From an uncultured Erysipelotrichaceae bacterium (GTDB lineage Bacteria; Bacillota_I; Bacilli_A; RFN20; CAG-826), in the NCBI GenBank assembly GCA_902797795.1, contig CADBUF010000012.1, forward strand, positions 232-64,231: DNA of 64,000 nt. The letters are read 5' to 3'. Below the pieces are notes generated by a model. It searched no databases and was not told the DNA's origin. It worked only from the letters and a program-made list of their open reading frames with translations. This document shows positions 5,210-60,113 of the stretch, piece by piece. Every line of letters starts with the position of its first letter. Position 1 is the stretch's first letter. The translations under genes were made by a program, and so were the position numbers.

Positions 5210-5211
5210 AA

Positions 5212-6303: not shown

Positions 6304-6306
6304 TGA

Positions 6307-7605: not shown

Positions 7606-7608
7606 TTT

Positions 7609-8916: not shown

Positions 8917-8917
8917 A

Positions 8918-11242: not shown

Positions 11243-11246
11243 AGCC

Positions 11247-31796: not shown

Positions 31797-32720
31797 CTAT
31801 TTCTTTTTCTTTTTCTCTGTGTCTTCTTTATGAATCTGTTTCATTTCTTCTGTGTCTTGTTTGCCAGAAGTTTCGTTATAGAAGTTAACAATAATAGAGG
31901 TGATGACCGCCACAACGACAATGCCGTACATACCAAGAAGCACAGTAACTACTCTACCAATTAACGTTTTAGCAGTGAAATCGCCAAAACCAATCGTAGT
32001 GACAACCGCAAAAGAGTACCATAATCCATCACCAAAAGTTGTAATCGATTCTTCAAAATAGGCAAAGACAATCGCAGAAGCCACTACCATGGTTAATAAA
32101 CCAAGGAGAACTTCTAAAGCGAAAGTACGGATGATGATTTTTAATAATGTCTTTAGTTTTAATTGTAAGAAAGCGTTTGCAAGAACTTCGATTAAAGAAG
32201 CAATAATGACAATAAAACAAACTATCATAATTGGGGCAAACATTTCCGTAGGTCCATAAGGCACAAATAAACCAAGAGCGAGTAAAGCAAATAAAGTAAT
32301 AATAAGAGCGTTTAAAACAATACTTCTAACCGTCGGCTTTTGAATGATTTTAAAGATACGGGAAATAATAATAGAGATACAGAATATTCCCCCGCATGCA
32401 GAATAACAATAGGAGTTATCTTTACCAAAGTAGGCAATTACGCCTAGAGAAATATTTAGAACAAATAAAAAGGCAAATCTTATTAAATTAGTTCTTGTTC
32501 GATCTCTTAAATACGTAACGAATCTTGATAAACCTAAAACAATAAAGATTAAAAACATATAAACCGACACCATAGTAGCGTCAGGTGGAGTTAATCTTGC
32601 GTAATATAAGGCCATGATTGAAAAGGCCATGATGATAGTTGAAATAGCACTACCAAGAGTGAGCAAAAGCACCCTTACAGTGGTTTCAGTTAATTTTATT
32701 CTTCCGTGTTTTTTACTCAT
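31797..32720 (-). CDS. potassium-channel-like membrane protein (paralog A)
   Basis: 307 aa. Multi-TM N-terminus, pore helix + selectivity filter WYSFAVVTTIGFGD followed by an inner helix, Lys-rich C-tail. Confidence 0.65.
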   Translation of the reverse strand: MSKKHGRIKLTETTVRVLLLTLGSAISTIIMAFSIMALYYARLTPPDATMVSVYMFLIFIVLGLSRFVTYLRDRTRTNLIRFAFLFVLNISLGVIAYFGKDNSYCYSACGGIFCISIIISRIFKIIQKPTVRSIVLNALIITLFALLALGLFVPYGPTEMFAPIMIVCFIVIIASLIEVLANAFLQLKLKTLLKIIIRTFALEVLLGLLTMVVASAIVFAYFEESITTFGDGLWYSFAVVTTIGFGDFTAKTLIGRVVTVLLGMYGIVVVAVITSIIVNFYNETSGKQDTEEMKQIHKEDTEKKKKK

Positions 32721-34632: not shown

Positions 34633-35475
34633 TTATATAAATAATTGTTTGATTGTTTTGACAATCTTTCGTCTTTTTCCTTGATATATTCCATCACCAG
34701 AATATAGAACCTTAAATCCACACTTATCTAAAACCCTTAAGCTTGCCTTGTTGTTTTCAAGAACAACACCATAGACTTCTTTTAAATTTGTGTTTCTCTT
34801 TAAATATCCTAAGAAAAGATTTACGGCTTCTGTTGCATACCCTTTTTTGGTAAATAGTTTAGCGATGTGATAGCCTATTTCCCATCCTTCTTTTATTTTT
34901 ACTAATTGAATGTAACCAATATTTGCATTATCGTCTTTTCTAATAATTACGTATACAAACGGACCGTTTTCGCTACCATAGTTTTTAATAATTTGATCTA
35001 CCACTTCGCTAGCTTCTTCTAAAGATTCAAAGACTTCATCTGGAGAAAATTTTCTGTTGTCTTCGTCTTGTGAATTACGAAACACATCATAATACATGGA
35101 TTGATTCATTTTAGCTATATAGAGTCTATTTCCATCAATAAGTTTTTCACTTGTGTTTAATAACTCTTTGTTAACAATGTCTTTCCAATCTTGAAAATGA
35201 GAAAGAACACGTAATATAAATACGGTTTTTGTTGATTCGTTAATTTGATAAATAGCAATGTGATTTAAGCAAACTAAATAGTAAGACCTTGCATAATCAA
35301 ATAATGAATTTCTAATTTTGATTCCGCGGCTTGGAAAAGTAGATAAAGATTCCAATTTATCAAATATTTTTTCAATGTAATGAGTCGCAGCATTTATATT
35401 ATCAGCAGAAATAAAAGACTTGATGTTCTCCAAGTCTTTAAAGGCAGAATTAGAAATAATAACATTATATGTCAT
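34633..35475 (-). CDS. fusion protein: ParE/RelE-family type II toxin domain (N-term) + GNAT N-acetyltransferase domain (RimL/Acetyltransf_3-like, C-term)
   Basis: N-terminal about 95 aa has ParE/RelE hallmarks (FPSRGIKIRNSLFDYARSYYLVCLNHIAIYQINESTKTVFILRVLSH). C-terminal part has GNAT motifs (IGYIQL...GYATEAV...NKASLRVLDKCGFK). 4-nt overlap with the upstream antitoxin gene. Confidence 0.65.
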   Translation of the reverse strand: MTYNVIISNSAFKDLENIKSFISADNINAATHYIEKIFDKLESLSTFPSRGIKIRNSLFDYARSYYLVCLNHIAIYQINESTKTVFILRVLSHFQDWKDIVNKELLNTSEKLIDGNRLYIAKMNQSMYYDVFRNSQDEDNRKFSPDEVFESLEEASEVVDQIIKNYGSENGPFVYVIIRKDDNANIGYIQLVKIKEGWEIGYHIAKLFTKKGYATEAVNLFLGYLKRNTNLKEVYGVVLENNKASLRVLDKCGFKVLYSGDGIYQGKRRKIVKTIKQLFI

Positions 35476-35720
35476 AGCAATTTCTTTTTTGCCTCGGACA
35501 AAGGCATCATTCTTCCATTTGCAATATCCGCAATACCTTCATTAATTTTTTGCATTAAATCAATACTTCGATATAGTTCGTCTAAAACATGAGAAGCGAC
35601 AATAGCGGTATCTTCTTTACCATTTACAGTAATATATACAGGCTCTTGCGTTAATTTGCACAGCTCACTTATTTCTTTGTATTTGTTTCTTAAGTCTGCA
35701 CTTGGTCTAATAATCGCCAT
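35472..35720 (-). CDS. Phd/YefM-RelB-like type II antitoxin
   Basis: 82 aa. MAIIRPSADLRNKYKEISE...PVYITVNGKEDTAIV resembles Phd/YefM antitoxin fold. Overlaps the toxin gene by 4 nt. Confidence 0.55.
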   Translation of the reverse strand: MAIIRPSADLRNKYKEISELCKLTQEPVYITVNGKEDTAIVASHVLDELYRSIDLMQKINEGIADIANGRMMPLSEAKKKLL

Positions 35721-38020: not shown

Positions 38021-38028
38021 TGCACAAG

Positions 38029-38054
38029 AAAAGCGGGATTCCCGCTTTTTCTCT
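38029..38054 (+). terminator. rho-independent terminator after cls (possibly bidirectional)
   Basis: AAGCGGGAttCCCGCTT hairpin followed by TTTTTCTCTT. Confidence 0.7.
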
Positions 38055-38971
38055 TATTCCTTCTTGTTTTGTTCTTCAAGTTCCTTGATTTGTTTTTCAA
38101 GTCGCTCAATATCTCTTTGTTCTCTTTTCTTGTTCATTTCGTTATAGAAGTTAACGATGAAGGAAGTGAATACCGCGACAACGGCGATGCCACTTATTCC
38201 CAAGAAAACTGATAGAATTCTTCCAAAAGTAGTAACTACATATACATCACCAAAACCAATCGTGGTGATAACCGCAAATGAATACCACAAAGAATCAACA
38301 TAACTCACAATATTTGGTTCCACTAAAGTGAAATATAAGGAACATAAAATAACAAGGATAGATAGAGTTAAGATAATCTCATTAATAAGTGACTTTTTAA
38401 TGATGTTACTAATGACATTGAATTTTAATATGTTTTGATAAGGGAAGAGCAAATTCTTACCACTAGAAACAATGATCATCGAAGAAAAACATAGAACGAT
38501 AAAATTAGAATTACTAACTGAGGTAGCGTGTTTACCATAGATTTCTGGGAAAAAGAACACAAAAGAGAAGAGGAACGCTAAAGTGATACATAAACAGTTG
38601 AATATGATTGATTGTAAAGAACGATCTTCTCTTATCTTAAGTAAACGATAAACAACGATTGTTAAAGAATATAAGAACATCGAAGTAATAAGGAAATATA
38701 TGCTATATTTAGTAAGTGAGACTAAGACAGCAAGAACAAAAATAAAGGCGGTTAAGAAAATGTTTTCAAACATGTTCTTTTTAAAATTTGAAAGGTGTAA
38801 ACCAACGCGATTAATACCTAAACATACTAAGGCAATTGATAATGTGTAAAGACCAACGTAACTATCCTCCACTGAAAAAGCAACTGTGGCTATACAAAAA
38901 CCAATCGCGATTATTCCACTAATTAAGCCAAATATGTAGTAAGGGTTTTTTCTGTTTCCAACTTTTTCCAT
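38054..38971 (-). CDS. potassium-channel-like membrane protein (paralog B)
   Basis: 305 aa. WYSFAVITTIGFGD filter, same architecture as 31797-32720. Charged coiled-coil-like C-tail (EQRDIERLEKQIKELEEQNKKE). Confidence 0.65.
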   Translation of the reverse strand: MEKVGNRKNPYYIFGLISGIIAIGFCIATVAFSVEDSYVGLYTLSIALVCLGINRVGLHLSNFKKNMFENIFLTAFIFVLAVLVSLTKYSIYFLITSMFLYSLTIVVYRLLKIREDRSLQSIIFNCLCITLAFLFSFVFFFPEIYGKHATSVSNSNFIVLCFSSMIIVSSGKNLLFPYQNILKFNVISNIIKKSLINEIILTLSILVILCSLYFTLVEPNIVSYVDSLWYSFAVITTIGFGDVYVVTTFGRILSVFLGISGIAVVAVFTSFIVNFYNEMNKKREQRDIERLEKQIKELEEQNKKE

Positions 38972-39050: not shown

Positions 39051-41162
39051 TTACATTTTAATAATAAGGATATTTTTGTTATTAGAGTAATAATAATCAA
39101 TAGCCTTACTAATGTTACGAATAATAGAGATACCTAATCCTCCAACAATCCCTTCTTCAACGTTTTCTTGAACGGTTCTATTTTTCATTTTCAAAGGATT
39201 GAATGGGTGAGAATTATCAATAAAGATTAAGGTAATATCATCTTTTTTCTTTTCTACTTGGATAGTAATCTTTTTATTTGTTTTAGCCTTGCCGTAGGAG
39301 ATGATATTATTCAAAGCATCATCGATGATAACTCCAATTTTACTAACGACATCAACTGGTGACTCACTTAAATATTCACCAACTTGATTTGTGACTTTTT
39401 CAATATCGTCATAACAAGGATTTTCAATTTCAATATTTAAGATCTCTGGTCTAATTTTTAAAGAGAGAATTGTAATATCATCAAATTGTTCTTCCTTACC
39501 TCTAAATTTAGTAATGTCATCAATCGTATTATCGATTTTTTCTTTGATTTCTTTGTCATTATTCAAATCATCAAAAATTCTTTGATAACCATATTCTTCT
39601 TTTTTCTCATTAATCGCTTCATTTAATCCATCGGTGTGTAAGAATATTTCATCATTTTTATCAAGTTGGATAGATTCTTGTTCATAAATGAAATCTTCTT
39701 CTAAACCTAAAACAAAGTTAGAGTTAACTTTTAATTGTTGAAGTTTGCCTTTGTGTTTTACAAACGGACGTTCATGACCAGCGTTTACAAATTCAAATTT
39801 ATAAGTTTTCACATTAAGTACACCTAAGAAGACAGTGACAAAATATCCTTCTTTATTATTGATGCACAAACTGTTATTAACTTTGTTAAGTACTTCAGAT
39901 AAGCTTCTTTCAATGTGACATGCGGCTTTAATTTTTTCTTTCGCTCGCATCATAAATAAGCTAGCAGGAATACCTTTACCAGAGACATCAGCGATAACGA
40001 CCGCTAAGTGGTCTTTATCAACGAAGAAATAATCATAGAAATCCCCACCTACTACTTTAGCAGGAAGAATGAGGGTTCTAACTTCAATGTTATGTTCAAA
40101 ATATGTTGTGTCTGGTAAAGAATCCAATTGAATCTTACTAGCGATTTCTACTTCCGTATTAAATTGTTGCTCTTTAGCTTTAGCCTTTTTGATATTATCA
40201 ACATATTCAATGATTTGGTGTTGCATCTCATTAAATTCATTAGATAAGTCTCTAACTTCATCATTAGATTTGATGTTACTATTAATAACTTCTAAAGGTT
40301 CATCATTTTTCATCTTCTCAACGAAAGAAGTTGTCGCTTTTGATAATTTGCGGAAATTCTTAATAAGGAAAAATTTCGTAAATAAAGCATATATAACAAC
40401 TAGAACAATCGCTGCTCCAATAGTGATTAATAATTCAGTGGTTAATTGTTGATTGAATGTTTTATTAAATTCATATAGAGGATATTGAGTAACGATATAG
40501 CAACGGTATTTACTATCATCAACCCCCTCGGTGTAATATTTTAAGTAGGCATAAGAAGCATAATCATCCGCATATTTAGTGCTTGCTTGATTAGATGAAA
40601 GGAAAGATAATTCCGTATTATTAGTGACCCGATACGCTAATCCAACCACCCCGTAATTACCAGTAAGAGGGATACTACCTTCGACTAAATCGATGATCTT
40701 TCCTCTAAGAGCGTCATAAACAAACATTCGACTATTAACTGAAGTATAACGTTCGCTCACAGATTGAATGCTCGTAATAATTGAACCATAAAAGTTATTT
40801 CTAGCAGCCTGAATAAAAGATAAGCCCATTCCGCTGGTGCTACCAAATAAAGAAATTCGAGTATCTCCTTGATATTTAGCTAATTCAGTAGGGTCTAATT
40901 GCTCATAAGTATCCGCGACTGTTTCATATCTACTAATGAGCTCTTCAATAATCGATTGAAAGCCGTTATTTGGATCTGGAATAACTCTTACAACATCGTT
41001 AATAGAATTAGTGACTTGCTCACAAGTATTTGTGTAATTGTTTTTAGTGTTTTTATGGGAAATTAATAAGTTTACAGTTAGACTTGTGGTCACAATTAAA
41101 ATCGTCAACCCACCGGTTAACAAAATAATCTTACCAAGTAAACCAAGTCTAATTTTTTTCAT
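39051..41162 (-). CDS. membrane sensor with extracytoplasmic domain, HAMP linker, PP2C/SpoIIE-type Ser phosphatase domain and C-terminal RsbW-like HATPase_c_2 Ser-kinase domain
   Basis: 703 aa. TM1 (aa about 10-33), about 210-aa extracellular region, TM2 (LLITIGAAIVLVVIYALFTKFFLI), HAMP-like helices. PP2C motifs VGGDFYDYFF...ADVSGKGIPASLFM...HTDGLNEA. RsbW-like N/G boxes (IIDDALNNIISYG, IFIDNSHPFNP, GGLGISII). Confidence 0.75.
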   Translation of the reverse strand: MKKIRLGLLGKIILLTGGLTILIVTTSLTVNLLISHKNTKNNYTNTCEQVTNSINDVVRVIPDPNNGFQSIIEELISRYETVADTYEQLDPTELAKYQGDTRISLFGSTSGMGLSFIQAARNNFYGSIITSIQSVSERYTSVNSRMFVYDALRGKIIDLVEGSIPLTGNYGVVGLAYRVTNNTELSFLSSNQASTKYADDYASYAYLKYYTEGVDDSKYRCYIVTQYPLYEFNKTFNQQLTTELLITIGAAIVLVVIYALFTKFFLIKNFRKLSKATTSFVEKMKNDEPLEVINSNIKSNDEVRDLSNEFNEMQHQIIEYVDNIKKAKAKEQQFNTEVEIASKIQLDSLPDTTYFEHNIEVRTLILPAKVVGGDFYDYFFVDKDHLAVVIADVSGKGIPASLFMMRAKEKIKAACHIERSLSEVLNKVNNSLCINNKEGYFVTVFLGVLNVKTYKFEFVNAGHERPFVKHKGKLQQLKVNSNFVLGLEEDFIYEQESIQLDKNDEIFLHTDGLNEAINEKKEEYGYQRIFDDLNNDKEIKEKIDNTIDDITKFRGKEEQFDDITILSLKIRPEILNIEIENPCYDDIEKVTNQVGEYLSESPVDVVSKIGVIIDDALNNIISYGKAKTNKKITIQVEKKKDDITLIFIDNSHPFNPLKMKNRTVQENVEEGIVGGLGISIIRNISKAIDYYYSNNKNILIIKM

Positions 41163-41165
41163 TAT

Positions 41166-41465
41166 CTATTCCACTGTTAAGAATTTATCAAAACCAGTGA
41201 CGGAGAAAATTTCTTTAATGACGTCGTTACAGTTTTTAATCACTAATTTCTTATTAGTGGCTTGTGCGTCTTTTTTAAAGGCGATTAATAGTCTTAATCC
41301 AGCAGAAGAGATGTATTCGAGTTTTGCAAAATCCAAAACAACATCTAAATCATTTCTTTCTTCATGAGGAACTTTTTCAGTTAATTCTTGGGAAGTAACG
41401 GTGTCTAATCTTCCTTCTAAGGCGATTGTGATAACACCTTTTTCTTTAGTTGTTTTAATAGTCAT
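41166..41465 (-). CDS. STAS-domain anti-sigma-factor antagonist (SpoIIAA/RsbV-like)
   Basis: 99 aa. ITIALEGRLDTVTSQEL...LDFAKLEYISSAGLRLL with conserved phosphorylatable Ser in the YISSAGL motif. Confidence 0.8.
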   Translation of the reverse strand: MTIKTTKEKGVITIALEGRLDTVTSQELTEKVPHEERNDLDVVLDFAKLEYISSAGLRLLIAFKKDAQATNKKLVIKNCNDVIKEIFSVTGFDKFLTVE

Positions 41466-41467
41466 AA

Positions 41468-43234
41468 TTACGCTCCTTGTAAATTAATTTCTAAATATGT
41501 ATTGTTGGTATTTAACACTCTTGTGTAAGACATGTTAGATATCACTTTTCTCACTAATAATATACCACTAGTGGAGAATTCATGTTCATCTTCTTTATAT
41601 TGGGTTGGATCGAAGATGATTCCATCATCTCTAATAGAGAGTAACATTTTATCATTACTTATTCTTAAGGTGACGTCGATATAATAACGATGATTTTTAA
41701 AGCGATAACCATATTGGATGATATTAGCCACCATTTCTTCAGCGCCAATAGAAATCATCGTCGCATCTCTTTTATTCGCCCCATGTTTTAAGGCATATTC
41801 TTTTACTTCCATTGATAATTCTTCAACTTCATTGATGTCGTTAGTAATCGTGACATCATATTTATCTTGAATTTCAATATTAGGAATCATTAATAATCCT
41901 TCGGAAGTAGTTTTCTTCTTCTTGTTATAAATATAAATAAAGATATAAGTGATAAAGACAGTTCCTAATTCTGTTGCCGCTTGAGACACACAATATCCCT
42001 TTAAACCATAAGAGAATAATAGGCCTAAAGTTAAAGGAATAACTAAAATTAATTCTCGACATAATACAGTGACATAGGCAGGAACATTTTTAGTAATAGT
42101 CGGGTAATACATTTGATTGTATTTAGAAATCTCATAAGGAATAAAAGCAGCGAGATAAATCCAAATACATGTAAAGGTAAGACCGCTATTAGAGGTATAT
42201 TCACTAAATCCAAAGACTGTGCAATAAACTCCAGGGAAGATGGCAATAAGAGCGGTTAAAAAGACAGTTACCGCTAAATTAATAATGAAGATTTTTTTCG
42301 CTATTTTTCTTAAGGCGTAATAATCTCTTTCCCCATAAAGCACCCCACAAATATTTGGAATGGTTTGGATAATTCCACCTGCAAATAAATCAAAGACAAA
42401 GACCATGTTGGCAAGAATTCCAAAGATCATAATCTCAAAATTATCTTCAATTACTTTTGAAACATAGATCGAACAAATCGACATCTGTATCGCCGTTAAA
42501 AACATATTAAGGGCAAGCGAACTACTAGCCTTCAATGAATCAATCAAGCACTCCTTAGATGAGTCAAATTTAAAGGTCAATGAAAGCATACGTTTTTTGC
42601 TCTTAATATAGAAAAATACGAGCAAAATGCCGACAAAATATCCAAAACCGGTAGATAAAGCCGCTCCATACATCCCCATATCGCACCACTTAATAAAGGC
42701 GTATTCGGAACCAATTTTAAAGATATTAGCGACGATATACATCGCTGAAGCAAGACGTGGATTATTGTCTGCGCCAATGAAAGATCCTAAAAGTAAAGCA
42801 AGGGTGATAATTGGATCAGTGAGCATGAAGATAAGAATATATTGTCTAGCGTATTCAACGATATCGTTTGGGCAGAATAATTTCGCTAATGGTTCAGCAG
42901 TTAAATAGGCTAGTCCAGCAAATAAAAGAGAAAAAGCCATACCAATAATTAAACATAACGAGAATGTTGTTTTGGATTTAGAGACATTCCGTTTGCCTAA
43001 ATAATTAGCCACTACAATAGCACCACCCGTACCGATAGCAAATCCAGGCAATTGAATGATATATAAAATCGGTAAAACAAGAGAGGAAGCACTTAAAGCG
43101 TCATTACCAATGAAGTTACCAACAAAGATACCATCCACAAGCGAGCCAAATTGCATCGCAAAAATCATGAACATTGAAGGAAGAAGATATTGGATAAGTT
43201 TTTTATCCATCAATTTAGAATTACGAGCAAGCAT
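41468..43234 (-). CDS. MATE-family transporter fused to C-terminal RsbW/SpoIIAB-like HATPase_c_2 (anti-sigma-factor-type Ser kinase) domain
   Basis: 588 aa. N-terminal about 440 aa 12-TM MATE hallmark (LLPSMFMIFAMQFGSLVDGIFVGNFIGNDALSASSLVLPI...GTGGAIVVANYLGKRN). C-terminal about 140 aa with kinase N-box EMVANIIQYG, G1 IRDDGIIFDP, G2 STSGILLV. Confidence 0.65.
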   Translation of the reverse strand: MLARNSKLMDKKLIQYLLPSMFMIFAMQFGSLVDGIFVGNFIGNDALSASSLVLPILYIIQLPGFAIGTGGAIVVANYLGKRNVSKSKTTFSLCLIIGMAFSLLFAGLAYLTAEPLAKLFCPNDIVEYARQYILIFMLTDPIITLALLLGSFIGADNNPRLASAMYIVANIFKIGSEYAFIKWCDMGMYGAALSTGFGYFVGILLVFFYIKSKKRMLSLTFKFDSSKECLIDSLKASSSLALNMFLTAIQMSICSIYVSKVIEDNFEIMIFGILANMVFVFDLFAGGIIQTIPNICGVLYGERDYYALRKIAKKIFIINLAVTVFLTALIAIFPGVYCTVFGFSEYTSNSGLTFTCIWIYLAAFIPYEISKYNQMYYPTITKNVPAYVTVLCRELILVIPLTLGLLFSYGLKGYCVSQAATELGTVFITYIFIYIYNKKKKTTSEGLLMIPNIEIQDKYDVTITNDINEVEELSMEVKEYALKHGANKRDATMISIGAEEMVANIIQYGYRFKNHRYYIDVTLRISNDKMLLSIRDDGIIFDPTQYKEDEHEFSTSGILLVRKVISNMSYTRVLNTNNTYLEINLQGA

Positions 43235-43236
43235 AA

Positions 43237-46200
43237 TTAATCGTCCCTTTCAAAGTAATCTAAGGAAATCAAAGACTTAATAGCCTTAGTTAAATATTCT
43301 TGGTCAGTAATTGGCCATTTATAGCCTAAGCGGTAAAGCGCTTTAATCGAAAATGAATTATCGGTAAGGATATAAGAGTGAGAATGATTATCACTACTTG
43401 TATAAGTAATTAAAGCAGACACTTTCTTGCTCTTAACGTCATCATTTGTAGCTTTAATAACCTCATCCATAAATTCTTTATCCCCAACTTTTTCAATCTT
43501 TAAGCCACAGTCATTCATTGCTTCAATCACATCACCCATTTCTACAGGATGAGAATTTGCACTATGGAAGACGGTGAATTCTTTTGGAGCGGTCGCTAAA
43601 ACGAGAATGCTCTTAGCGACTTCATCAATTGGAGAGAAGTCGGTCGTTTCATCCAAAGAAGAGATTGGGAATTTTCCTAAAGCGTAATAACCTCGTAGAG
43701 ATCGCATAAATCCGTTAGTAATAGAGTTAATTTGGAATTCTCCATCGCTTTGACGTGACATCAAATTACCGACACGAACAATCTTTCCATCTAATCCATC
43801 TTTATTAATTGCCTCTAACATCGCTGCTTCCGCCATAAACTTAGAATGGATATATTTGTTAGAAATATCTTGTCCGATGTCTAATTGGTTTTCTTTCATA
43901 CGGAAGTTTTCAGCGAACTTATGGTCAATATTTTCGCCCGCAACTGATAAAGTGGAGATTTGAATCATTCTCGCATTATGCTTTAAAGCGATTCCAATGA
44001 GGTTTTTCACCCCTCCAACATTAATTTTTTCAATGATATCATCATTTGAGAAATGTTTAACAATCGCTGCTGAATTAATAAGTGTGTCAAATTTGATATC
44101 TTTGAGTTTATCGGTTAAGTTCTCGTCTGCAATATCTCCATCAACGATATGAATAAAGCTATCAAGTTCTTCAGTAAATGGAGAATCGAAATAATATTCA
44201 AGTAATAGAGAAAGTCTACTATGTAAGGAGATTTGTTTACTTCTTACTAACACATATGTTTCTATGTGCTGATCAATTAATTCTTTAAGAATATGAATTC
44301 CTAAAAAGCCAGTCGCACCAGTTAAAAGGACAACACCTAAATCTCTTTCTTTATGAATATCATCAACATATTCAATCGTGTTTTTATTAAGCGCTGCATA
44401 TTTATTATCCTTAGATTCTTCTACTGCTTTTTCTTCTTCCACCACCTCTTCATCTTTATTAATTAATGAAGCAAGTTCAAGGGCAGTAGAATGTTCAAAA
44501 ACATCTTTATAGGCAATTGGTAAGCCCTCTTTAAGAGCGAGCATTGCAACTTTTGAAGCGCTTAAAGAAGTACCACCTAATTCAAAGAAATCTTCATCGA
44601 TTCCGATATCTTGTTTTCCAAGGGCTTTAGCAAAGATTTCACAAATCGTTTTTTCAGTTTTGTTTCTAGGTGCTTTCTTTTCTTTATTAGAGGAAGTAGA
44701 AACAATTTCTGGTAATGATTTCTTATCAATCTTGCCATTAGGAGTAAGAGGGATACGATCAAGTTGCATCATTGCTTTAGGAATCATATATGGGGTAAGT
44801 GATTTTGCCATATATGAAGTTAAAGTTTCTTTATCTAAAGGTTTTGACGCGGTGTAATAAAGCGCTAAATAGTCGCCATCAACATCATTATTTTTCACTA
44901 AAATGACGCATCTAGTGACGTCTGGATGAGAATTACAAACGTTTTCAATCTCATCTAATTCAATTCTTAATCCATGTAATTTTATTTGGTTATCAAGACG
45001 TCCAAAGAATTCGGTGTTACCTTCATTATTCATTCTAGCAAGGTCACCACTTCGATAGGCTCTTTTACCGTTTAAATCAATAAATGAGGCTTTGGTTTTT
45101 TCTTCAAGTTTATAATAGCCAATACCAACACTATCACCGGCAATAGTTAAATCACCAATCGCATTAATTGGTAAAATATGACCAGCCTTATCCAAGATGT
45201 AATAGCTAGTGTTAGCAACAGGTTTACCAATAGTGACATATTTATCAGTAATAAAGGTCATTGATGAAGTAATCGTTGTTTCTGTTGGACCATAACCATT
45301 ATCAATCAGGCAATCAATGCCATGTTTTCTTATACGATCCACTAATTCATAAGGAACAGCCTCTGCTCCCATATCAAGCACTTTGAAGTTCTTTAATGCT
45401 TCAACAAATTCTAGAGTATCTAAAACGTTAGAAACGTATGAAGGAGTTAAGAACATAATGTTAACTCCATATTTCTTTAATGTTTGTGATAATAAAAGTG
45501 GGTTTTCAATCTCTTCTTCACTAGCGATCACTGCTTGATAACCATGAGAGAGAATGACACATTCTTCTTGTAAAGAAGCATCAAAAGCAAAAGAAGCAAA
45601 CGAGCAGCTAGACACTTTGTCTTTAATAATGCGATATTCGTTAGTGGCTAAATTAGCGCCATCTAAGACATAATTTGATAAATTCTTATGACTAATCATC
45701 ACCCCTTTAGGTTTACCAGTGCTACCAGAGGTATAGATGATGTAACATAGTGAATCTAGTGGGATACCAATATTTAAATTGCTTGTCTTATTAGATTTCA
45801 AAATGTCTTCAATTAAAAGAACTTTAATCTTTGTCTTTTTAATGAGGTCATGTTTTTCTTTTTCAATATCTTTAGTGGTTATTAAAATCTTCGCGTCACT
45901 ATCGGTGATGATATATTCAATACGATCATCAGGATATTTAGGATCAATAGCGACAAAGGCTCCACCCGATTTAAGAATACCTTCTCTAACGAAATAAGCA
46001 CTTACTCTTCTAGGCATGAGCATGATTACTCTTTCACCAAGAGCGACTTTATCTTCAGACAAAGCATGAGCGACTTTATTCGCGTTTTCGTTAAATTGTT
46101 TATATGTATATTCTCCATCAACACCCGCTAAAGCGAGTCTATTTGGATATTTCTCCACTATTTCTTCTACGATCTTAGGGTAGGCTTTATTTGAAGGTTT

Positions 46201-49200
46201 AACATATGTTTGGTTAAATTCTTCATATAACTTTTTATCAACTTCTGGTAAGCAGTTAATTTCACTGATGTGTTTTTTAGATGTCACTTCCAGTAACGCC
46301 AATTCAAATAATCTAGCAAATGATTCAATCGTATTCTTGTTATACATTGATTCATCATATTCAAAATGAAGTTTGAATTTATTATCTTCGATGAAAACAT
46401 CTAAAGAGAATAGTGATTTCGCATCATCTGAATCCAATATCACACTTTCAGCTTTCTTATTACCGATTTCATTAAATTCAAATAAGTCTCCTTGATAAGC
46501 AAACATCACATCACTAGTGATATTAAAGGCTGAGGCTATTTCTTGGAAAGAATAGATGTCGTTTATTTGTGAAGACTCTAATTGTTTCTTCATCTCTTCT
46601 AGTAGAGATAACACTTCATCATTTTCTTGATATTTAACATAAACTGGTAAAGTTTTTACCATCATCGAAACAGTGTTCATGTTCTTAGATGAATTTCTCC
46701 CATTATAGATAGTGACAAACAAAGCATCCTGCTTATAAATAAATTTAGAGAAGGTAAAACCAAATACGAAGTTAGTGATCGCATTTAGGGTTAAATTGTT
46801 CTTACTAGCGAATTCTTTAATCGCTTTGACATCAATATTAGAATAGATATCTTCAACATGTAATTTAGCGACTTCTTCAGTCTTTAAATCTTTCTTCATG
46901 AGATATCCATCTTCGACATCTTTCAATAAAGTAGCGTAATATTCTTTCGCATTTTCATAGGCTTTTGAATTACGTTTATCGTTCTCTTCTAAAGCAAGTT
47001 CATAGCCAGTGAAGGTTTCTTTTTCAAGCTTTTCACCAGAATAAGCTTTATTAATATCATTTAAAAGGATATTTTCACTAGTGCCATCACAGATAAGATG
47101 ATGAACATCTAAGAAGAGGTAATTATTATCTTTACATTCATAGATTTCAACACGATATAAAGGACCACCAACGATTTCAAAAGGTCTAACCAAAGATTTT
47201 TGATCGAGCTTATTAGCTTTAATAATTTCAACTTTTGGTTCAGCTTCTTTTCTTATAGCCTTGATGTTCCCATCATCGTCCATCTTCAAAGTTGTTAAAA
47301 GATATTCATGAGCCTTTAAGGCCTTAATCACACTTTCATTAAGTTTATTGATATCGATAGACTTATCAATTTTAAATAATAAAGGAATGTTATAATTTGT
47401 ACTTCCAACTTTAGCGATTGATTCAATAAAGATACCTTCTTGAGTCTTGGTTAATGGGTATTCACTTAATAAATCATAAGTCTTGTTTTCATCTTGTTCT
47501 TCCATCAAAGAAGCGAGTTCTTTAATGTTAGGGTGCTCGTTTAAATCTTGAGAAGAGATCTCTTTATTAAATGCTTTAGATAATCTCACAGTTAAAGTGA
47601 TAGAAGAAATAGAGGTAATACCAGCCTCATATATATCAGTAGTCACTCCAAAAGAATCATGACCTAAAATCTCTTTTATAATATCAAAGATCTTTTGTTC
47701 ATTTTCAGTGCTAGGTTTAACGACATCCTCCACTTTCAATTCAGGAACTGGTAAAGCTTTTTTATTCACTTTTTGGTTTTGATTAAGTGGAATTGCATCT
47801 ATTTGCATAATATATGGGGGGACCATATAAGGTGGCTTTTTACTTTTAATGAAAGCTTTTAAGTCATCAACGTCAATCTTTTTATCACTGACGATATAAC
47901 CCACGATATATTTAACTCCAGCGGGGTCCGCAAAATCTTTAACAGTCGCGTCTTTAATGTCTGGATATTGTCTAATAACTTGTTCGACTTCACTTAATTC
48001 CACACGGAAGCCACGTATTTTCACTTGGAAGTCTTTTCTTCCAATAAAATCGATATCTCCATTTGGAAGGAATCTTACGATATCACCAGTCTTATAAAGT
48101 TTTTTAAATCGAGGATCATCATCGAAAGGATTAATCAAGAAGGCCTTTTTATTTTCTTCGTCTCTATTTAGATATCCACGAGACACTTGAGGACCAGAAA
48201 TATATAACTCACCTTTAGCAAGATATGGTAATCTCTTTTTATTTTCGTCTAATACATAGAATTTATAATCGCTTAAAGCGTGACCAATTGGGATACGATG
48301 ATAAAGTTTATCAACATGATATCCGGAACAATATATTGTTCCTTCTGTTGGTCCATATAAATTGAATAGCTTATAGTTTTTAGGTGGGTCAAGAGGGACT
48401 AACTTTTCTCCTCCTACAGAAATAGTTCTAATCGTTTCAAATGTTAATTCACTCACTAATTGTCGACCTACTTGAGTAGTAAAGAAGGCATCAGTAATTT
48501 TATTTTCATTTAAATATTTATTTAGTCCAATGAGATCTAATCGCATCTCTTCAGGAATGATATAAATAGTTCCCCCGACCACGATAGTTGGATATAAATC
48601 AAGCATATCAGCGTCAAATCCATATGAAGCATAGGCACTCACTCTCGCGTCATGTTGGAGATTTCTAAAATTAATATCAACATTACAAACTGACATGATG
48701 TTTTGGTGTTCTAACATTACTCCTTTAGGAACACCAGTGGAGCCAGAAGTATATAACATGATAAAAAGGTTTTCAGGTCTAGGTCTATTTGTAGGTCGAG
48801 ATTCATCTTTCAATTTATCAAATTCATCAAGATAAATAACTGGGCCTTTATATTCATCGAGTAAATCAATATATTGTCTTTCGGCGATAACAACTTTACT
48901 AGATGCATCCTTAACCATGAAGTTAAGTCTTTCTTTAGGATAAGAAACATCTAATGGTTGATAGGCTGCACAAGATTTAATAACTCCTAAAGAGGCAATA
49001 ACAATATATTCACTTTTCGAAATAAGGATTGAAACTTTGTCTTCCTCTTTAACACCAAGTCTAATCAATTCATTAGCGATTCTATTTGAATAGAGGTCAA
49101 CTTCCTTATAGGTGTAACTCTTATCTTTATAGACCACTAAGGTTTTATTGGGCTCCTTATTAAGCCAATAATCAAATTTATCAAGAATTGTTTTTCCCTG

Positions 49201-50472
49201 TTCAAGTTGACTCATATCAACATGATTAAAGTCATCTAAAATCTTGATTTGTTTTTCATCTAAAAGTTCAATTTCTTCAAGTTTTAATGGTGATTTGAGC
49301 AGTTTTTTAAGAATTATGTCATATAAATCAATGATTTGATTAATCGAGTCATCACTATATAAATCACTTCTAAATTCAAACCAAATATAGAACTTATTTC
49401 TATCTCTATGGATCTCAATAGACATGATTCCTTTTCCATCTTTTTCTTCGATTTGTTTAGCCACTACTTCTTTGTCGTTGAATGTTGTTTTAAACATATA
49501 ATCACCTTGATAGGCAAATAAGATTTCAGGAGAGACACCTAAATTTGTAACAACTTGAGAGAAGGAATATAAATCATGTTTAACATTATTAATCAATTCG
49601 TCATTAACCTTATTAAACATTTCTTTGGAAGTTTTGATATTTTCTAAATTGAGATAAAGAGGGAATGTCCTTACAAACATACCAAAAGTATTTTCTAATG
49701 TTTCATCTCTACCATTATGAATGGAAGCAATTATTACTTCTTTGTCCATGTTCACTTTTGAAAGGAGGAACATAAAACAAGAGATAAAATAGCTTGATGT
49801 TTTAATTCCTTGCTTATGAGTAAATTCACGAACCTCACTAGCGTCAACTTTTAATTCTTTTTTAATCGTATGATGACTAATTTCTTCTTTTTTATAGTCC
49901 TCGACTATTGTACTTTCAGTGTCGATTCCACCATAGTTGTCTTTATAATATTTTTCAGCTTCTTTAAATTCCTTGGATTTTAGAAGTTTTTGTTCGCGCT
50001 TACAGTAGGAGAAGACATCTTCTTTTTCAGAAGGTATTTTCTTTCCTTTATATAAAGCATCTAAGGAATCAATGAATAATTTAATTGTGTTACCATCAGC
50101 GATGATGTGATGGAAATCAAAAAATAGATAATATTCTTTATTAACTTTTAAAAGCTCAAAACGATATAAGTGATGGTTAAATAGATCAAATTCCTTCACC
50201 AACCCTTTTTCATTAATCTTTTTTAATTCTTTAAGAGGGACTTTGATATCTTCTACATGACATTCTTTGTAGAAGTTTCCTTCATCATCTTTTTTAATGA
50301 TCGTAAATATCCCTTGATGGACTTTACTAAACTCATTAATAGCGGCCTCTATTTTCTTGGCGTCAACATCTTCTCCTAAAGGTAATAAAGAAGGGAGGTT
50401 ATATTTAGTTGTCGGTTTTAAACATTCAAACAAAATCCCTAATTCAGATTGCGATAAAAGATACTTTTCCAT
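43237..50472 (-). CDS. dimodular non-ribosomal peptide synthetase, C-A-T-C-A-T-R (terminal thioester reductase)
   Basis: 2411 aa. C1 HHIIADG (aa 121-127). A1 cores LYTSGSTGVPKGV / NLYGPTEG / YKTGDIVRF...GRKDFQVKIRGFRVEL with FDAD (Asp235). T1 GITSIS. C2 HHLICDG. A2 YTSGSTGKPKGV / NGYGPTET / YRSGDLARM...GRLDNQIKLHGLRIEL with FDAS. T2 LGGTSLSA. R domain Rossmann VVLLTGATGFLGIHIL. Confidence 0.95.
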   Translation of the reverse strand: MEKYLLSQSELGILFECLKPTTKYNLPSLLPLGEDVDAKKIEAAINEFSKVHQGIFTIIKKDDEGNFYKECHVEDIKVPLKELKKINEKGLVKEFDLFNHHLYRFELLKVNKEYYLFFDFHHIIADGNTIKLFIDSLDALYKGKKIPSEKEDVFSYCKREQKLLKSKEFKEAEKYYKDNYGGIDTESTIVEDYKKEEISHHTIKKELKVDASEVREFTHKQGIKTSSYFISCFMFLLSKVNMDKEVIIASIHNGRDETLENTFGMFVRTFPLYLNLENIKTSKEMFNKVNDELINNVKHDLYSFSQVVTNLGVSPEILFAYQGDYMFKTTFNDKEVVAKQIEEKDGKGIMSIEIHRDRNKFYIWFEFRSDLYSDDSINQIIDLYDIILKKLLKSPLKLEEIELLDEKQIKILDDFNHVDMSQLEQGKTILDKFDYWLNKEPNKTLVVYKDKSYTYKEVDLYSNRIANELIRLGVKEEDKVSILISKSEYIVIASLGVIKSCAAYQPLDVSYPKERLNFMVKDASSKVVIAERQYIDLLDEYKGPVIYLDEFDKLKDESRPTNRPRPENLFIMLYTSGSTGVPKGVMLEHQNIMSVCNVDINFRNLQHDARVSAYASYGFDADMLDLYPTIVVGGTIYIIPEEMRLDLIGLNKYLNENKITDAFFTTQVGRQLVSELTFETIRTISVGGEKLVPLDPPKNYKLFNLYGPTEGTIYCSGYHVDKLYHRIPIGHALSDYKFYVLDENKKRLPYLAKGELYISGPQVSRGYLNRDEENKKAFLINPFDDDPRFKKLYKTGDIVRFLPNGDIDFIGRKDFQVKIRGFRVELSEVEQVIRQYPDIKDATVKDFADPAGVKYIVGYIVSDKKIDVDDLKAFIKSKKPPYMVPPYIMQIDAIPLNQNQKVNKKALPVPELKVEDVVKPSTENEQKIFDIIKEILGHDSFGVTTDIYEAGITSISSITLTVRLSKAFNKEISSQDLNEHPNIKELASLMEEQDENKTYDLLSEYPLTKTQEGIFIESIAKVGSTNYNIPLLFKIDKSIDINKLNESVIKALKAHEYLLTTLKMDDDGNIKAIRKEAEPKVEIIKANKLDQKSLVRPFEIVGGPLYRVEIYECKDNNYLFLDVHHLICDGTSENILLNDINKAYSGEKLEKETFTGYELALEENDKRNSKAYENAKEYYATLLKDVEDGYLMKKDLKTEEVAKLHVEDIYSNIDVKAIKEFASKNNLTLNAITNFVFGFTFSKFIYKQDALFVTIYNGRNSSKNMNTVSMMVKTLPVYVKYQENDEVLSLLEEMKKQLESSQINDIYSFQEIASAFNITSDVMFAYQGDLFEFNEIGNKKAESVILDSDDAKSLFSLDVFIEDNKFKLHFEYDESMYNKNTIESFARLFELALLEVTSKKHISEINCLPEVDKKLYEEFNQTYVKPSNKAYPKIVEEIVEKYPNRLALAGVDGEYTYKQFNENANKVAHALSEDKVALGERVIMLMPRRVSAYFVREGILKSGGAFVAIDPKYPDDRIEYIITDSDAKILITTKDIEKEKHDLIKKTKIKVLLIEDILKSNKTSNLNIGIPLDSLCYIIYTSGSTGKPKGVMISHKNLSNYVLDGANLATNEYRIIKDKVSSCSFASFAFDASLQEECVILSHGYQAVIASEEEIENPLLLSQTLKKYGVNIMFLTPSYVSNVLDTLEFVEALKNFKVLDMGAEAVPYELVDRIRKHGIDCLIDNGYGPTETTITSSMTFITDKYVTIGKPVANTSYYILDKAGHILPINAIGDLTIAGDSVGIGYYKLEEKTKASFIDLNGKRAYRSGDLARMNNEGNTEFFGRLDNQIKLHGLRIELDEIENVCNSHPDVTRCVILVKNNDVDGDYLALYYTASKPLDKETLTSYMAKSLTPYMIPKAMMQLDRIPLTPNGKIDKKSLPEIVSTSSNKEKKAPRNKTEKTICEIFAKALGKQDIGIDEDFFELGGTSLSASKVAMLALKEGLPIAYKDVFEHSTALELASLINKDEEVVEEEKAVEESKDNKYAALNKNTIEYVDDIHKERDLGVVLLTGATGFLGIHILKELIDQHIETYVLVRSKQISLHSRLSLLLEYYFDSPFTEELDSFIHIVDGDIADENLTDKLKDIKFDTLINSAAIVKHFSNDDIIEKINVGGVKNLIGIALKHNARMIQISTLSVAGENIDHKFAENFRMKENQLDIGQDISNKYIHSKFMAEAAMLEAINKDGLDGKIVRVGNLMSRQSDGEFQINSITNGFMRSLRGYYALGKFPISSLDETTDFSPIDEVAKSILVLATAPKEFTVFHSANSHPVEMGDVIEAMNDCGLKIEKVGDKEFMDEVIKATNDDVKSKKVSALITYTSSDNHSHSYILTDNSFSIKALYRLGYKWPITDQEYLTKAIKSLISLDYFERDD

Positions 50473-50477
50473 AATTG

Positions 50478-51092
50478 TTATTCCTCCAAAGAATTGATTT
50501 TCTTAATATTTATATTAAATGGTTTTTCCTCTTTTAAAGTAAGAGATAACGAATAGCCATCATATATCATCGATTTAGTGTAACCACCATATCTATTTCC
50601 TTCTAAAGGAAGGCCCTTTATTTTTCTTATATCCATAAGCGAATTAGAGAAACATTTAATAAGGCTTTCTTTATTAGACCAAAGAAGGAATAAATCATTG
50701 ATATCATTAATTTCTTTTTCTTCATCCACTAATGAATATTTAATCGCCCCAATTTTGCTTTGATCAATGCGTTCAATATCCACTCCAACATCTCTATCTA
50801 TAGAGACAGCAAGAACAACATATTCCCCTGAATGTGACAAATTAAAATATGGTCCATTTTCCATATAAGGCTTACCATTATCGGTAAATTTAATCTCTTT
50901 ATGTGGAAGAAATTTATATAGTAAATACCCTCCACCCAAGGAGAGAATTTGATCCTTTTTTTGAACGAACCTATTAGCTTTTTCAATTCGACTTTTATCA
51001 ATATGAGAAACAATAAAAGAATAATTGTCGTTTACAAAAGAAGTATGAAGAATATAGACATTAATTTCATTCATTAAAAAATATTCTAACAC
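50478..51092 (-). CDS. Sfp-type 4'-phosphopantetheinyl transferase
   Basis: 204 aa. VGVDIERI and WSNKESLIKC (W..KE...K) motifs. 5-nt gap to the NRPS start. Confidence 0.8.
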   Translation of the reverse strand: MLEYFLMNEINVYILHTSFVNDNYSFIVSHIDKSRIEKANRFVQKKDQILSLGGGYLLYKFLPHKEIKFTDNGKPYMENGPYFNLSHSGEYVVLAVSIDRDVGVDIERIDQSKIGAIKYSLVDEEKEINDINDLFLLWSNKESLIKCFSNSLMDIRKIKGLPLEGNRYGGYTKSMIYDGYSLSLTLKEEKPFNINIKKINSLEE

Positions 51093-51149
51093 ACCTATGT
51101 ATTACGCGTTAATAATTTCCGTTCAATAAATTGAAAGAGGATTATATAA

Positions 51150-51929
51150 CTAATATTTTCCGAAAAGAAGAACCGCTACGACGAGAATTTGGCTTTTTGA
51201 CAATGAATCAGTGATTTCATATTTTATTGATAAGTCATAAAGAGTGATATAGTTACCACTAATAGAGGCATAAAAACCACCAAAAATTTTATTGATGTTA
51301 CTACCACTCAATTCATAAAGATAGCCACCGAAAGCGTTTTTAATTTGATTGCCTCTAATTTCAAAAACTGGTCCATATCCTTCTTGATTAACCATATCAT
51401 TTTCAATACGGTAATATGTATTTGTTCGCATATCTAAAATACGGCTACCATCAATTCTTAATATCGGTCCATAACCAACTTGTTTAACATATATAGTGGA
51501 AATAGAAGAATAACGGTAAGAGGTTCTTTCATCTCTTTCTGCTTTATAAAAATATTCATTATTTTTCTCTATTTCAATCTCACTTTTTTCATTAAAAGAA
51601 GAGGTTTCTTTCGCGTCTTTATTCTCTTCTATATCTTTTTCTTCTTTAAATTCGCTTGGTATTGGAGCGTTTATTTTGTTCTTATTTGACACATATTGGA
51701 TAGTAAAAAAGACTAGAAAAACAAGTAAGGCAATAATTCCGATAATGAGCAAAATTAAACCAGAAATAAATAGACCTTCGCCTTTTTTAAAATTGTAAAT
51801 TAAAGAAGACGCTCCATAGGCGGTTCCAATAATTCCAAACACCGCAATTGTCCAAAGAAAATATCGTCTTCTCATAACTAATAAAAGTTTATCATAAGTA
51901 ATACTTATTCTATATATAAAATGTAACAC
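51150..51929 (-). CDS. membrane-anchored hypothetical protein with C-terminal Gly/aromatic-rich tandem repeats
   Basis: 259 aa. N-terminal TM segments. C-terminal imperfect about 14-22 aa repeats (YGPILRIDGSRILD / YGPVFEIRGNQIKNAFGGYLYELSGSNINKIFGGFYASISGNYI). No known motif recognised. Confidence 0.35.
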   Translation of the reverse strand: MLHFIYRISITYDKLLLVMRRRYFLWTIAVFGIIGTAYGASSLIYNFKKGEGLFISGLILLIIGIIALLVFLVFFTIQYVSNKNKINAPIPSEFKEEKDIEENKDAKETSSFNEKSEIEIEKNNEYFYKAERDERTSYRYSSISTIYVKQVGYGPILRIDGSRILDMRTNTYYRIENDMVNQEGYGPVFEIRGNQIKNAFGGYLYELSGSNINKIFGGFYASISGNYITLYDLSIKYEITDSLSKSQILVVAVLLFGKY

Positions 51930-58862: not shown

Positions 58863-58863
58863 A

Positions 58864-59958: not shown

Positions 59959-60113
59959 CTGTAAAATAATTTCAATTTTTAATTATTGTTTTTGATTTTT
60001 TTGACATTTTTTGCAAAATAATTCAGTACAATAACTGTCTAATCAAAAGCAGAGAGCTCAAAATAATTGATACCTTTAAAAACCAATGCAAGGAAACAGA
60101 GTGCTTCAATCCA

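Follow-up and report, generated by a model that had tools for sequence, protein, structure and literature searches.

A kinase-fused MATE exporter within a reductase-terminated nonribosomal peptide synthetase operon of an uncultured gut or rumen Erysipelotrichaceae bacterium: an apparent partner switch with a non-sigma output

The contig CADBUF010000012.1 of an uncultured Erysipelotrichaceae bacterium (assembly GCA_902797795.1, positions 232 to 64,231) carries a cassette of five genes in which a nonribosomal peptide synthetase (NRPS) and a MATE-type transporter are encoded together with the components of a partner-switching module, namely an RsbW-like kinase domain, a STAS antagonist and a PP2C phosphatase. 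The whole 64,000-nucleotide stretch was analysed and is called the window below. The hub of a partner switch is its RsbW-type protein, which alternates between an antagonist and an output, and the question raised by this locus is which output such a module serves in a biosynthetic operon. The comparison of the cassette with its relatives showed that the hub is covalently joined to the exporter in an old protein family, and that this fusion accompanies reductase-terminated NRPSs nearly always. The system is apparently a partner switch with a non-sigma output, the fused exporter inside a peptide-aldehyde NRPS operon.

The cassette occupies positions 39051-51092 of the minus strand. Its five open reading frames (ORFs), which the first-pass annotation had placed on one strand with gaps of 2-5 nt, were confirmed as follows, in the order of transcription (lengths in amino acids, aa).

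50478-51092, minus strand: Sfp-type 4'-phosphopantetheinyl transferase (PPTase), ORF of 204 aa; Pfam AASDHPPT_N and ACPS
43237-50472, minus strand: dimodular NRPS, 2411 aa; Pfam Condensation (two), AMP-binding (two), PP-binding (two) and NAD_binding_4
41468-43234, minus strand: MATE-kinase fusion, 588 aa; Pfam MatE (1.6e-25) and HATPase_c_2 (6.4e-11)
41166-41465, minus strand: single-domain STAS protein of the anti-sigma-factor-antagonist type, 99 aa; Pfam STAS (2.7e-16)
39051-41162, minus strand: PP2C-kinase protein, 703 aa; Pfam SpoIIE/PP2C (7.4e-43) and HATPase_c_2 (7e-11)

The domain assignments of that annotation were borne out by Pfam for all five proteins, every call exceeding the gathering score; both C-terminal domains match HATPase_c_2, and the 99-aa protein is a STAS protein with a conserved phospho-serine. 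The intergenic gaps are 5, 2, 2 and 3 nt, and at each junction a sequence resembling a ribosome-binding site lies within the 3' end of the preceding gene. Therefore no room is left for internal promoters or terminators, and what the scans returned inside the cassette genes matches the consensus weakly. Together the five genes constitute a single operon with translational coupling.

The protein encoded directly after the NRPS consists of two parts.

41915-43234, minus strand: MATE (DinF-type) transporter domain, aa 1-440, about 12 transmembrane (TM) helices
41468-41872, minus strand: RsbW/SpoIIAB-like GHKL kinase domain, aa 455-588, at the cytoplasmic C-terminus of the MATE domain

The transporter half matched Pfam MatE with 90.1 bits (cut-off 24.9), and its profile matched DinF-BH with an E value of 2.7e-50. 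Its AlphaFold2 model (predicted local distance difference test 84.6, predicted template modelling score 0.84) was found by Foldseek to superimpose on PfMATE, VcmN and DinF-BH with template modelling scores of 0.81-0.86, ClbM being matched as well. The score against TIGR00797 was 88.6 bits, below the cut-off of 147.4, and the protein therefore belongs to a divergent MATE subfamily. The kinase domain starts about 15 residues past the last helix, and its Pfam HATPase_c_2 match spans aa 464-572. It contains an N-box (E499/E500...N504) and an RsbW-like G1 motif (R535-D-D-G538...FDPT). A single-sequence phmmer search of the domain against the PDB gave no match and a family profile was needed, which retrieved SpoIIAB (E 0.004-0.006), RsbW (0.014) and Rv1364c. 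In 135 related domain hits the E..N pair of the N-box is kept in about 128, and the D-x-G element, as RDDG or RDNG, in all but 5, loci devoid of STAS included.

Most of the nearest relatives found when the kinase domain by itself was searched exhaustively, those at 26-30% identity included, have 570-606 aa and carry it at the C-terminus. Moreover, end-to-end alignment with the MATE-kinase protein was obtained, at 21-48% identity, for 65 full-length sequences that represent 50%-identity clusters, and the fusion is, on this sequence record, an old family. The pipeline of JGI already labels two of the relatives [quoted passage not shown].

The remaining elements of the switch were located on the two following gene products.

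41295-41312 (codons), minus strand: motif I-S-S-A-G-L of the STAS protein with the predicted phospho-acceptor Ser53
40434-41057, minus strand: single-Cache (PDC) extracytoplasmic sensor of the phosphatase protein, aa 36-243
39453-40016, minus strand: PP2C (PPM/SpoIIE-family) serine phosphatase domain, aa 383-570; Pfam SpoIIE 7.4e-43
39051-39368, minus strand: second RsbW-like HATPase_c_2 domain, on the phosphatase protein, aa 599-703; Pfam 7e-11 over aa 599-701

The STAS protein scored 65.6 bits against TIGR00377 ("anti-sigma factor antagonist", cut-off 53.45), and 104 of the 107 STAS proteins related to it retain its Ser53, which we take to correspond to Ser58 of SpoIIAA. Hydropathy of the 703-aa protein indicated TM1 at about aa 10-34 and TM2 at about aa 244-266, with a loop of ~205 aa between them that has the Cache fold for binding of small molecules. 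In 36 orthologues the PP2C motifs GGDFYD (aa 372-377, just upstream of the Pfam span), DVSGKG, AGHE, TDGLNE and FDD are essentially invariant, the metal-binding motifs included. In the second kinase-like domain the N-box D/E..NN and the G2 motif GG(L/F)G are invariant, and an intact G1 D-x-G is missing from nearly all members ("DNS" in the clade of the window, mostly "S/T-N-G" elsewhere). This domain may be a pseudokinase with a docking or regulatory function. Of the first-pass description of the protein as a phosphatase/kinase, the PP2C and HATPase_c_2 domains stand, and the word kinase may overstate the second. The MATE-fused domain, as the sole copy with intact D-x-G, is likelier to be the true kinase. 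The two kinase-like domains are 22% identical, and a recent internal duplication was ruled out on this ground. It was also considered that the sensor recognises a conserved product; this idea found no support, the sensor being the least conserved part and the NRPS with the code of its second A domain the most conserved in the window clade, which is suggestive at most.

In a homologue search with the MATE-kinase protein, more than 120 clusters were obtained at identities of 51-98%, and every one has this pair of Pfam domains. The contigs looked up at 69%, 61%, 53% and 51% identity encoded NRPS, MATE-kinase, STAS and PP2C-kinase in one order between unrelated flanks. Carriers were met in 41 species of a scan of species-representative genomes, all uncultured, nearly all from the rumen or ruminant gut, and labelled Erysipelotrichaceae, Bacilli, Clostridia, Christensenellales or Acholeplasmatales; tblastn placed an NRPS directly upstream of the MATE-kinase gene in every locus having upstream DNA. 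The contexts of distant members and 80 further loci from a metagenome scan were then annotated with hidden Markov models of the cassette domains built from the family alignments. The related loci came to 132 after removal of redundancy, and the MATE-kinase identity in them is 29-98% where measured. Ten of these loci are uninformative, the contig beginning at the MATE gene; among the other 122 the NRPS adjoins MATE-kinase in 118 and is truly missing from 4. The NRPS reductase (R) domain lies directly upstream (<400 nt) in 102 of the 132 loci; in 13 the NRPS follows directly downstream, and in 3 a distance of 1.4-1.7 kb separates it from the MATE-kinase gene.

Every complete NRPS adjacent to the MATE-kinase gene terminates in R. 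The architectures vary between C-A-C-A-R, A-C-A-C-A-R and longer forms (C, condensation; A, adenylation), and 25 different codes were read from 90 terminal A domains. The common denominator is therefore reductive release and not one peptide. STAS and PP2C were counted where the flanks reach 7 kb or more upstream and 4.5 kb or more downstream; of these 58 loci, 51 (88%) have STAS and 47 (81%) have PP2C. The five-gene unit proposed at first pass thus proved real as a co-occurrence, which extends over more than 100 loci and dozens of species, and requires a narrower definition: the invariant core is the NRPS R domain with MATE-kinase, to which STAS and PP2C are frequent, locally dispensable companions. 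That the flanks differ wholly between loci and that several lineages are involved implies a function carried by the cassette itself, which is best read as a horizontally mobile unit, complete in itself, for production, export and sensing.

The arrangement of the companions is variable (loci are cited by L numbers). PP2C and the kinase-like domain are separate genes in L047; the STAS gene stands immediately upstream of the NRPS gene, and not beside MATE, in L080, L090, L098, L102 and L135; and L031 has the layout phosphatase-antagonist-NRPS-MATE-...-phosphatase. In L050 (768-2648) a 626-aa ORF joins an N-terminal STAS (aa 8-100) to a stand-alone adenylation domain, on a single contig and possibly as an artefact; it heads an NRPS cluster ending in A-T-R (T, thiolation) and then MATE-kinase, with FHA and VWA proteins in the place of PP2C. 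STAS fusions are too few to serve as general Rosetta-stone evidence, amounting to this one and one STAS-PP2C cluster (P0148).

Some loci depart further from the common plan. One clade contains two MATE-kinase paralogues per cluster (L047:12699-14492, L083, L086, L089, L091, L107, L109 and L116); the second of them has degenerate ATP-binding motifs (RNSG, and Val for the Asn of the N-box) and follows a STAS gene; glyoxalase-like and GH3 amido-synthetase genes accompany it. In L025 (8765-13995) and L042 (12185-17428) the PP2C-kinase gene after STAS is replaced by response-regulator-like, radical-SAM-like and C39-peptidase-type ABC exporter-like genes, a set that looks bacteriocin-like as judged from N-terminal sequences, with two further STAS genes downstream. 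An alpha-2-macroglobulin gene (A2M, MG2, bMG3) directly precedes a MATE-kinase gene lacking an NRPS in L093 (2-3163, before 3303-5096) and L108 (2-3094, before 3132-4979), and in L126 (6345-9083) a thermolysin-like M4 peptidase gene is convergent to another such MATE-kinase gene. This hints at a protease/protease-inhibitor theme of the fused exporter family beyond NRPS clusters.

The substrate of the exporter was approached from the NRPS, whose domains are given below.

49183-50472, minus strand: C1, aa 1-430
47728-49140, minus strand: A1, aa 445-915
aa 926-988, minus strand: T1
aa 1004-1413, minus strand: C2
44731-46167, minus strand: A2, aa 1436-1914
about aa 1940-2005, minus strand: T2
43423-44331, minus strand: R, aa 2048-2350

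According to Pfam, the order C-A-T-C-A-T-R represents two modules ending in T-R. The HHxxxDG motifs of the C domains (aa 121 and 1124) and the serine motifs of the T domains are intact, as are GATGFLG (GxxGxxG, aa 2052) and YxxxK (aa 2207) of the R domain. The best NCBIfam family of the NRPS is AusA (1118.9 bits, equivalog cut-off 2500) and that of the PPTase is AusB (47.7 bits, cut-off 225); the scores being far under the cut-offs, the two proteins are relatives and not orthologues of AusA and AusB. The specificity codes, extracted with a GrsA reference which reproduced DAWTIAAICK, were DALFSGLIYK for A1 and DAQFDGGITK for A2. In 32 NRPSs of the window clade the A2 code is constant except for a single I-to-V change, and A1 varies among hydrophobic codes. 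To our knowledge, no described specificity code matches DAQFDGGITK with confidence, and A2 is left without an assigned substrate; the acidic residue in its pocket hints at a polar or basic one.

Judged from the domain order, the product would be a linear N-acyl dipeptide aldehyde, reactive and protease-inhibitor-like. As the NRPS begins with a C domain, N-acylation of residue 1 is expected, so that of the two product types named at first pass, peptide aldehyde or pyrazinone, the linear aldehyde is the likelier and the pyrazinone would be blocked. The aldehyde is predicted from the R domain, for which four-electron reduction to the alcohol is the alternative; the ambiguity between aldehyde and alcohol release from such domains has been discussed (PMC8024701).

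The first-pass annotation supposed that this operon organisation had not been described. In fact, Leahy et al. reported in 2010 the same gene set in Methanobrevibacter ruminantium M1 (mru0066-mru0071, around the NRPS mru0068) and offered similar speculation, suggesting roles in sensing, regulation and export (PMC2812497). The synthetase mru0068 has two C-A-T modules and, according to the legend of Figure S8, a reductase domain; its alignment with Swol_1094 of Syntrophomonas wolfei extends over the full length, and a bacterial origin is probable (PMC2812497). An NRPS 81% identical, sm9_0755, occurs in M. millerae (PMC4987999). Compared by its published description, the M. ruminantium cluster resembles that of the window in the co-location of a C-A-T-C-A-T-R NRPS, MatE, an antagonist of an anti-sigma factor, and a serine phosphatase, and in the rumen habitat, and differs in having phosphatase and antagonist upstream of the NRPS. 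Among the related loci, L031 shares this layout with M. ruminantium. No description was found in the literature of the MATE-kinase fusion, its age and breadth and its near-obligate pairing with reductase-terminated NRPSs, or of the Cache sensor and the degenerate second kinase domain.

Among the ORFs of 110 aa or more in the window, none was found to have a sigma-factor domain, in agreement with the first-pass annotation, and the sole classical regulator is a TetR protein, 14 kb from the cassette. Neither a sigma factor nor a recurrent DNA-binding protein is present among the called genes of the 17 loci with gene tables, the other loci having been screened for cassette domains alone. The classical output partner of the kinase, a sigma factor, was thus found neither in the window nor in those 17 loci. 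Archaea do not use bacterial sigma factors, and a sigma output could therefore not work for the methanogen gene set. These two circumstances, the lack of a conserved DNA-binding or sigma partner and the report of the same gene set in archaea, argue against feedback on cluster transcription.

It appears rather probable that the output of the switch lies inside the cassette, as the exporter or the NRPS. A self-contained partner switch which acts post-translationally on the fused exporter is our preferred reading, although it falls somewhat short of being probable. More tentative still is its specific form, in which the MATE exporter is the switch partner and a Cache-fed phospho-relay directly gates the transporter, or its docking to the synthetase, and controls aldehyde release. 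Since the hub is fused to MATE, the transporter is the most economical output. The strong conservation of the ATP-binding motifs of the MATE-fused domain, the STAS serine and the PP2C metal motifs supports this reading. A reactive aldehyde should leave the cell promptly, which fits the translational coupling of an R-terminated NRPS to a dedicated MATE.

In the scheme proposed, the PPTase would prime the NRPS, which, to judge from its domain order, would build an N-acylated dipeptide and release it reductively as a reactive aldehyde, and the MATE protein encoded immediately downstream would, from its adjacency, be the exporter. The RsbW-like domain on the MATE C-terminus would be the hub of the switch. 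Unphosphorylated STAS would bind this domain and so change either the transporter's state or the way in which transporter and synthetase are coupled; phosphorylation on Ser53 by the same domain would release STAS. The PP2C would be controlled by an external small molecule bound to the Cache domain and, in the ligand-bound state, would dephosphorylate and so reset STAS, and the degenerate kinase-like domain would probably dock STAS or regulate the phosphatase and not act as a second kinase. The net effect would be that an external chemical cue gates the release of a protease-inhibitor-like aldehyde.

Several points weigh against this scheme. In the MATE-fused domain the G2/ATP-lid motif, T-S-G-I, departs from the usual form, and kinase activity of the domain is therefore not assured. 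The span inspected is 20-64 kb around each cassette, and a distant sigma factor or other target is possible. The paper on M. ruminantium mentions no kinase domain in MatE (mru0069), which was compared by description alone; the products of the M1 NRPSs were still unidentified in 2021 (PMC8024701); and no mechanistic, comparative or experimental study of the combination of NRPS, MATE-kinase, STAS and PP2C was found in full-text literature searches. Moreover, 7 of the 58 long-flank loci have neither STAS nor PP2C and yet an intact MATE-fused domain, with N-box and D-x-G retained, so that a STAS-independent role, or partners elsewhere, may exist. The fused GHKL domain could then be mainly an ATPase or nucleotide sensor which regulates or energises MATE, STAS and PP2C being a later, optional addition to the core of NRPS-R and MATE-kinase; four loci with MATE-kinase but without NRPS, STAS and PP2C, two of them adjoining the alpha-2-macroglobulin gene, would agree with this. 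However, the frequency of STAS in the long-flank loci and its nearly invariant phospho-acceptor serine argue that STAS is a genuine substrate or partner of the cassette kinase, the MATE-fused domain alone has an intact D-x-G, and MATE transporters are ion-coupled and need no ATP, so that we regard such a role as quite unlikely. Quite as unlikely, in our estimate, is a remote output, in which the membrane-tethered RsbW-like domain would sequester a distant sigma factor or regulator until STAS frees it, whereupon the cluster or a stress regulon would be transcribed differently. The Rsb/SpoIIA systems have exactly these three components, SpoIIAB and RsbW are the profile matches, the limited span inspected leaves space for a distant partner, and Leahy et al. 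likewise proposed regulation of NRPS expression (PMC2812497). This explanation meets the lack of a sigma factor described above and the archaeal occurrence; transfer between distant lineages with different flanks fits poorly with dependence on a host-specific sigma factor, and the fusion of kinase and exporter and its pairing with reductase-terminated NRPSs would be left unexplained.

A target inside the cassette other than the exporter is the NRPS itself. STAS would act on a carrier or adenylation domain, for example, and the MATE-fused kinase would sequester or phosphorylate STAS according to the state of the transporter, so that stalled export would throttle aldehyde synthesis and protect the producer. 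The E. coli YchM STAS domain binds acyl carrier protein, a relative of the NRPS T domains. The same-ORF fusion of STAS and adenylation domain in L050, the STAS gene next to the NRPS gene in the several clades listed above, and the coupled translation of NRPS and MATE-kinase would also be in line with it. But the fusion is known from a single contig and may be an assembly or frameshift artefact, and in the canonical cassette STAS is free-standing beside the kinase and phosphatase genes; we hold this mechanism to be unlikely, if somewhat less so than the two preceding ones. That the genes are chance neighbours, or merely share a promoter without functional coupling, has next to no probability and is effectively refuted by the comparative data: the NRPS stays beside MATE-kinase in 118 of 122 informative loci, down to 29% identity and between unrelated flanks, the fusion is conserved and the gaps are 2-5 nt.

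If the MATE exporter itself is the switch partner, this would be the first partner switch with a transporter output, and no earlier case would exist of a dedicated post-translational control over the export of a natural product; the control would reside in a portable module able to operate even in archaea, without sigma factors. The regulation of natural products is studied almost always at transcription, and the exporter-kinase fusion suggests signal-gated export or export-coupled synthesis. In chemical class the predicted aldehydes agree with the protease-inhibiting dipeptide aldehydes known from Clostridia of the human gut. Metagenomes of the rumen and animal gut contain the family in abundance, and its range as reported in the literature extends to rumen methanogens, so that it may matter for the protease biology between microbes, and between microbes and host, in ruminants. 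The four proteins would offer a compact system for asking how partner switches evolve non-sigma outputs, and the combination of MATE and HATPase_c_2 could serve as a genome-mining marker of peptide-aldehyde clusters.

The borders of the cassette were examined in the window, and two features of the minus strand bear on them.

51083-51112, minus strand: promoter candidate of the sigma-70 type, upstream of the gene for the PPTase (TTAACG, 18 nt, TAGAAT, extended -10 TG), from a consensus scan alone
38054-38971, minus strand: K+-channel-like gene (Pfam Ion_trans_2), 79 nt downstream of the cassette

The promoter is a weak prediction, because the region holds fewer promoter-like sites than shuffled sequence. 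Residue 7 of the listed ORF, an ATG at 51074, is probably the true start of the PPTase in place of the GTG at 51092, since it is with this residue that the L002 orthologue's called start aligns; the PPTase gene adjoins the NRPS in most, not all, related loci. Just upstream of it (51150-51929, minus strand) a 259-aa single-TM protein is encoded, without a Pfam family and with a weak NCBIfam match to the MAG0920 family; it was sought in 46 related loci, is absent from them, and is not a cassette member. At the other end no terminator-like site was found between 39051 and 38971, the first strong hairpin being at 38028-38050, and the K+-channel-like gene may be co-transcribed with the cassette in this genome. 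A homologue lies directly downstream of the PP2C-kinase gene in none of 46 related loci, with weak matches elsewhere in L024 and L027, and by this comparison the gene falls outside the conserved cassette. A second, similar K+-channel-like gene is located at 31797-32720 (minus strand), 6 kb from the first; both proteins have ~305 aa, with a multi-TM N-terminus and Ion_trans_2 at the C-terminus.

Genes for a PAD_porph protein (agmatine/peptidyl-arginine deiminase-like; 30264-31778, plus strand) and an S41 peptidase (32742-34586, minus strand) recur near the cassette in two of the closest related loci (L002:1-1197; L001:322-2532). This is probably residual synteny of close relatives, and could be relevant if the product has a basic residue. 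The protein of 280 aa encoded at 34633-35475 (minus strand) combines an N-terminal ParE-toxin with a C-terminal GNAT acetyltransferase, an unusual toxin-type fusion, and the overlapping 82-aa ORF before it (35472-35720, minus strand) could be the antitoxin. A gene set at 57630-63197 (minus strand) looks like a defence island; it comprises the gene of a 1027-aa protein in which a calcineurin-like phosphoesterase is combined with an nSTAND3 NTPase, a 364-aa ORF without Pfam match and the gene of an AAA_14 ATPase. The regions 568-12481 and 20697-22130 (both minus strand) encode two sets of xanthine-dehydrogenase-type molybdenum hydroxylase subunits, which, with amidohydrolases and a dihydroorotate dehydrogenase-like Fe-S protein, probably serve purine/pyrimidine catabolism, and in addition a 477-aa protein that has DUF6937 and DUF6938 with very strong Pfam scores. 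The window contains no tRNA genes.

The chemistry of the NRPS has known counterparts. The AusA/AusB system of S. aureus is a reductase-terminated dipeptide aldehyde/pyrazinone system, and Guo and co-workers reportedly described in 2017 a family of reductase-terminated NRPSs of gut Clostridia which make dipeptide aldehydes and pyrazinones. The ruminopeptin synthetase has the order C-A-T-C-A-T-R, the same as the NRPS of the window. Ruminopeptin of Ruminococcus bromii (Schneider and Balskus) is the product of a reductase-terminated NRPS as summarised in PMC12327764. These systems and that of the window share the T-R release chemistry, the habitat of gut-associated anaerobes and a predicted N-acyl dipeptide aldehyde protease inhibitor; unlike the NRPS of the window, AusA is without a starter C domain. 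No partner-switching module or kinase-fused MATE was found for the AusA, gut Clostridia and ruminopeptin clusters in literature outside the primary reports. ClbM of the colibactin NRPS-PKS island is likewise a MATE dedicated to the export of an NRPS-type product and is a structural match, and differs in having no fused cytoplasmic kinase domain and no STAS/PP2C module.

The logic of the switch also has precedents. The BtrU/V/W system of Bordetella is a partner switch with a non-sigma output. Others are SiaABCD of P. aeruginosa (PMC8457831, PMC7647112), SypE/SypA of V. fischeri, in which SypE joins kinase and phosphatase domains in one protein (PMC10120452), and the HenR module of Anabaena, which controls a glycosyltransferase (PMC13555669). 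The SiaABCD-type systems resemble the cassette in the membrane PP2C with a sensor region, the RsbW-like kinase, the STAS-type switch and an enzyme or machine as the output, and SiaA is the best NCBIfam match of the 703-aa protein at 61.5 bits, far below the equivalog cut-off of 700. In contrast to them, the kinase is here covalently fused to a secondary transporter and the module lies within a biosynthetic operon; the window encodes no GGDEF protein (SiaD-type diguanylate cyclase), and no type III secretion or polysaccharide genes are involved. The resemblance to SiaABCD is to be taken as an analogy of logic only.

The regulation of transporters by STAS proteins or domains is known from MlaB-MlaFEDB and from SLC26/SulP. 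In these systems, as would be the case here, a membrane transporter is regulated by a STAS fold in contact with its cytoplasmic side, and the 99-aa protein has a weak NCBIfam match to MlaB. They differ in the lack of an RsbW-kinase/PP2C phosphorylation cycle and in the type of transporter, ABC and SLC26 versus MATE. In SulP, with its C-terminal STAS domain (PMC8256260), STAS is the fused element, whereas in the protein of the window the fused element is the kinase.

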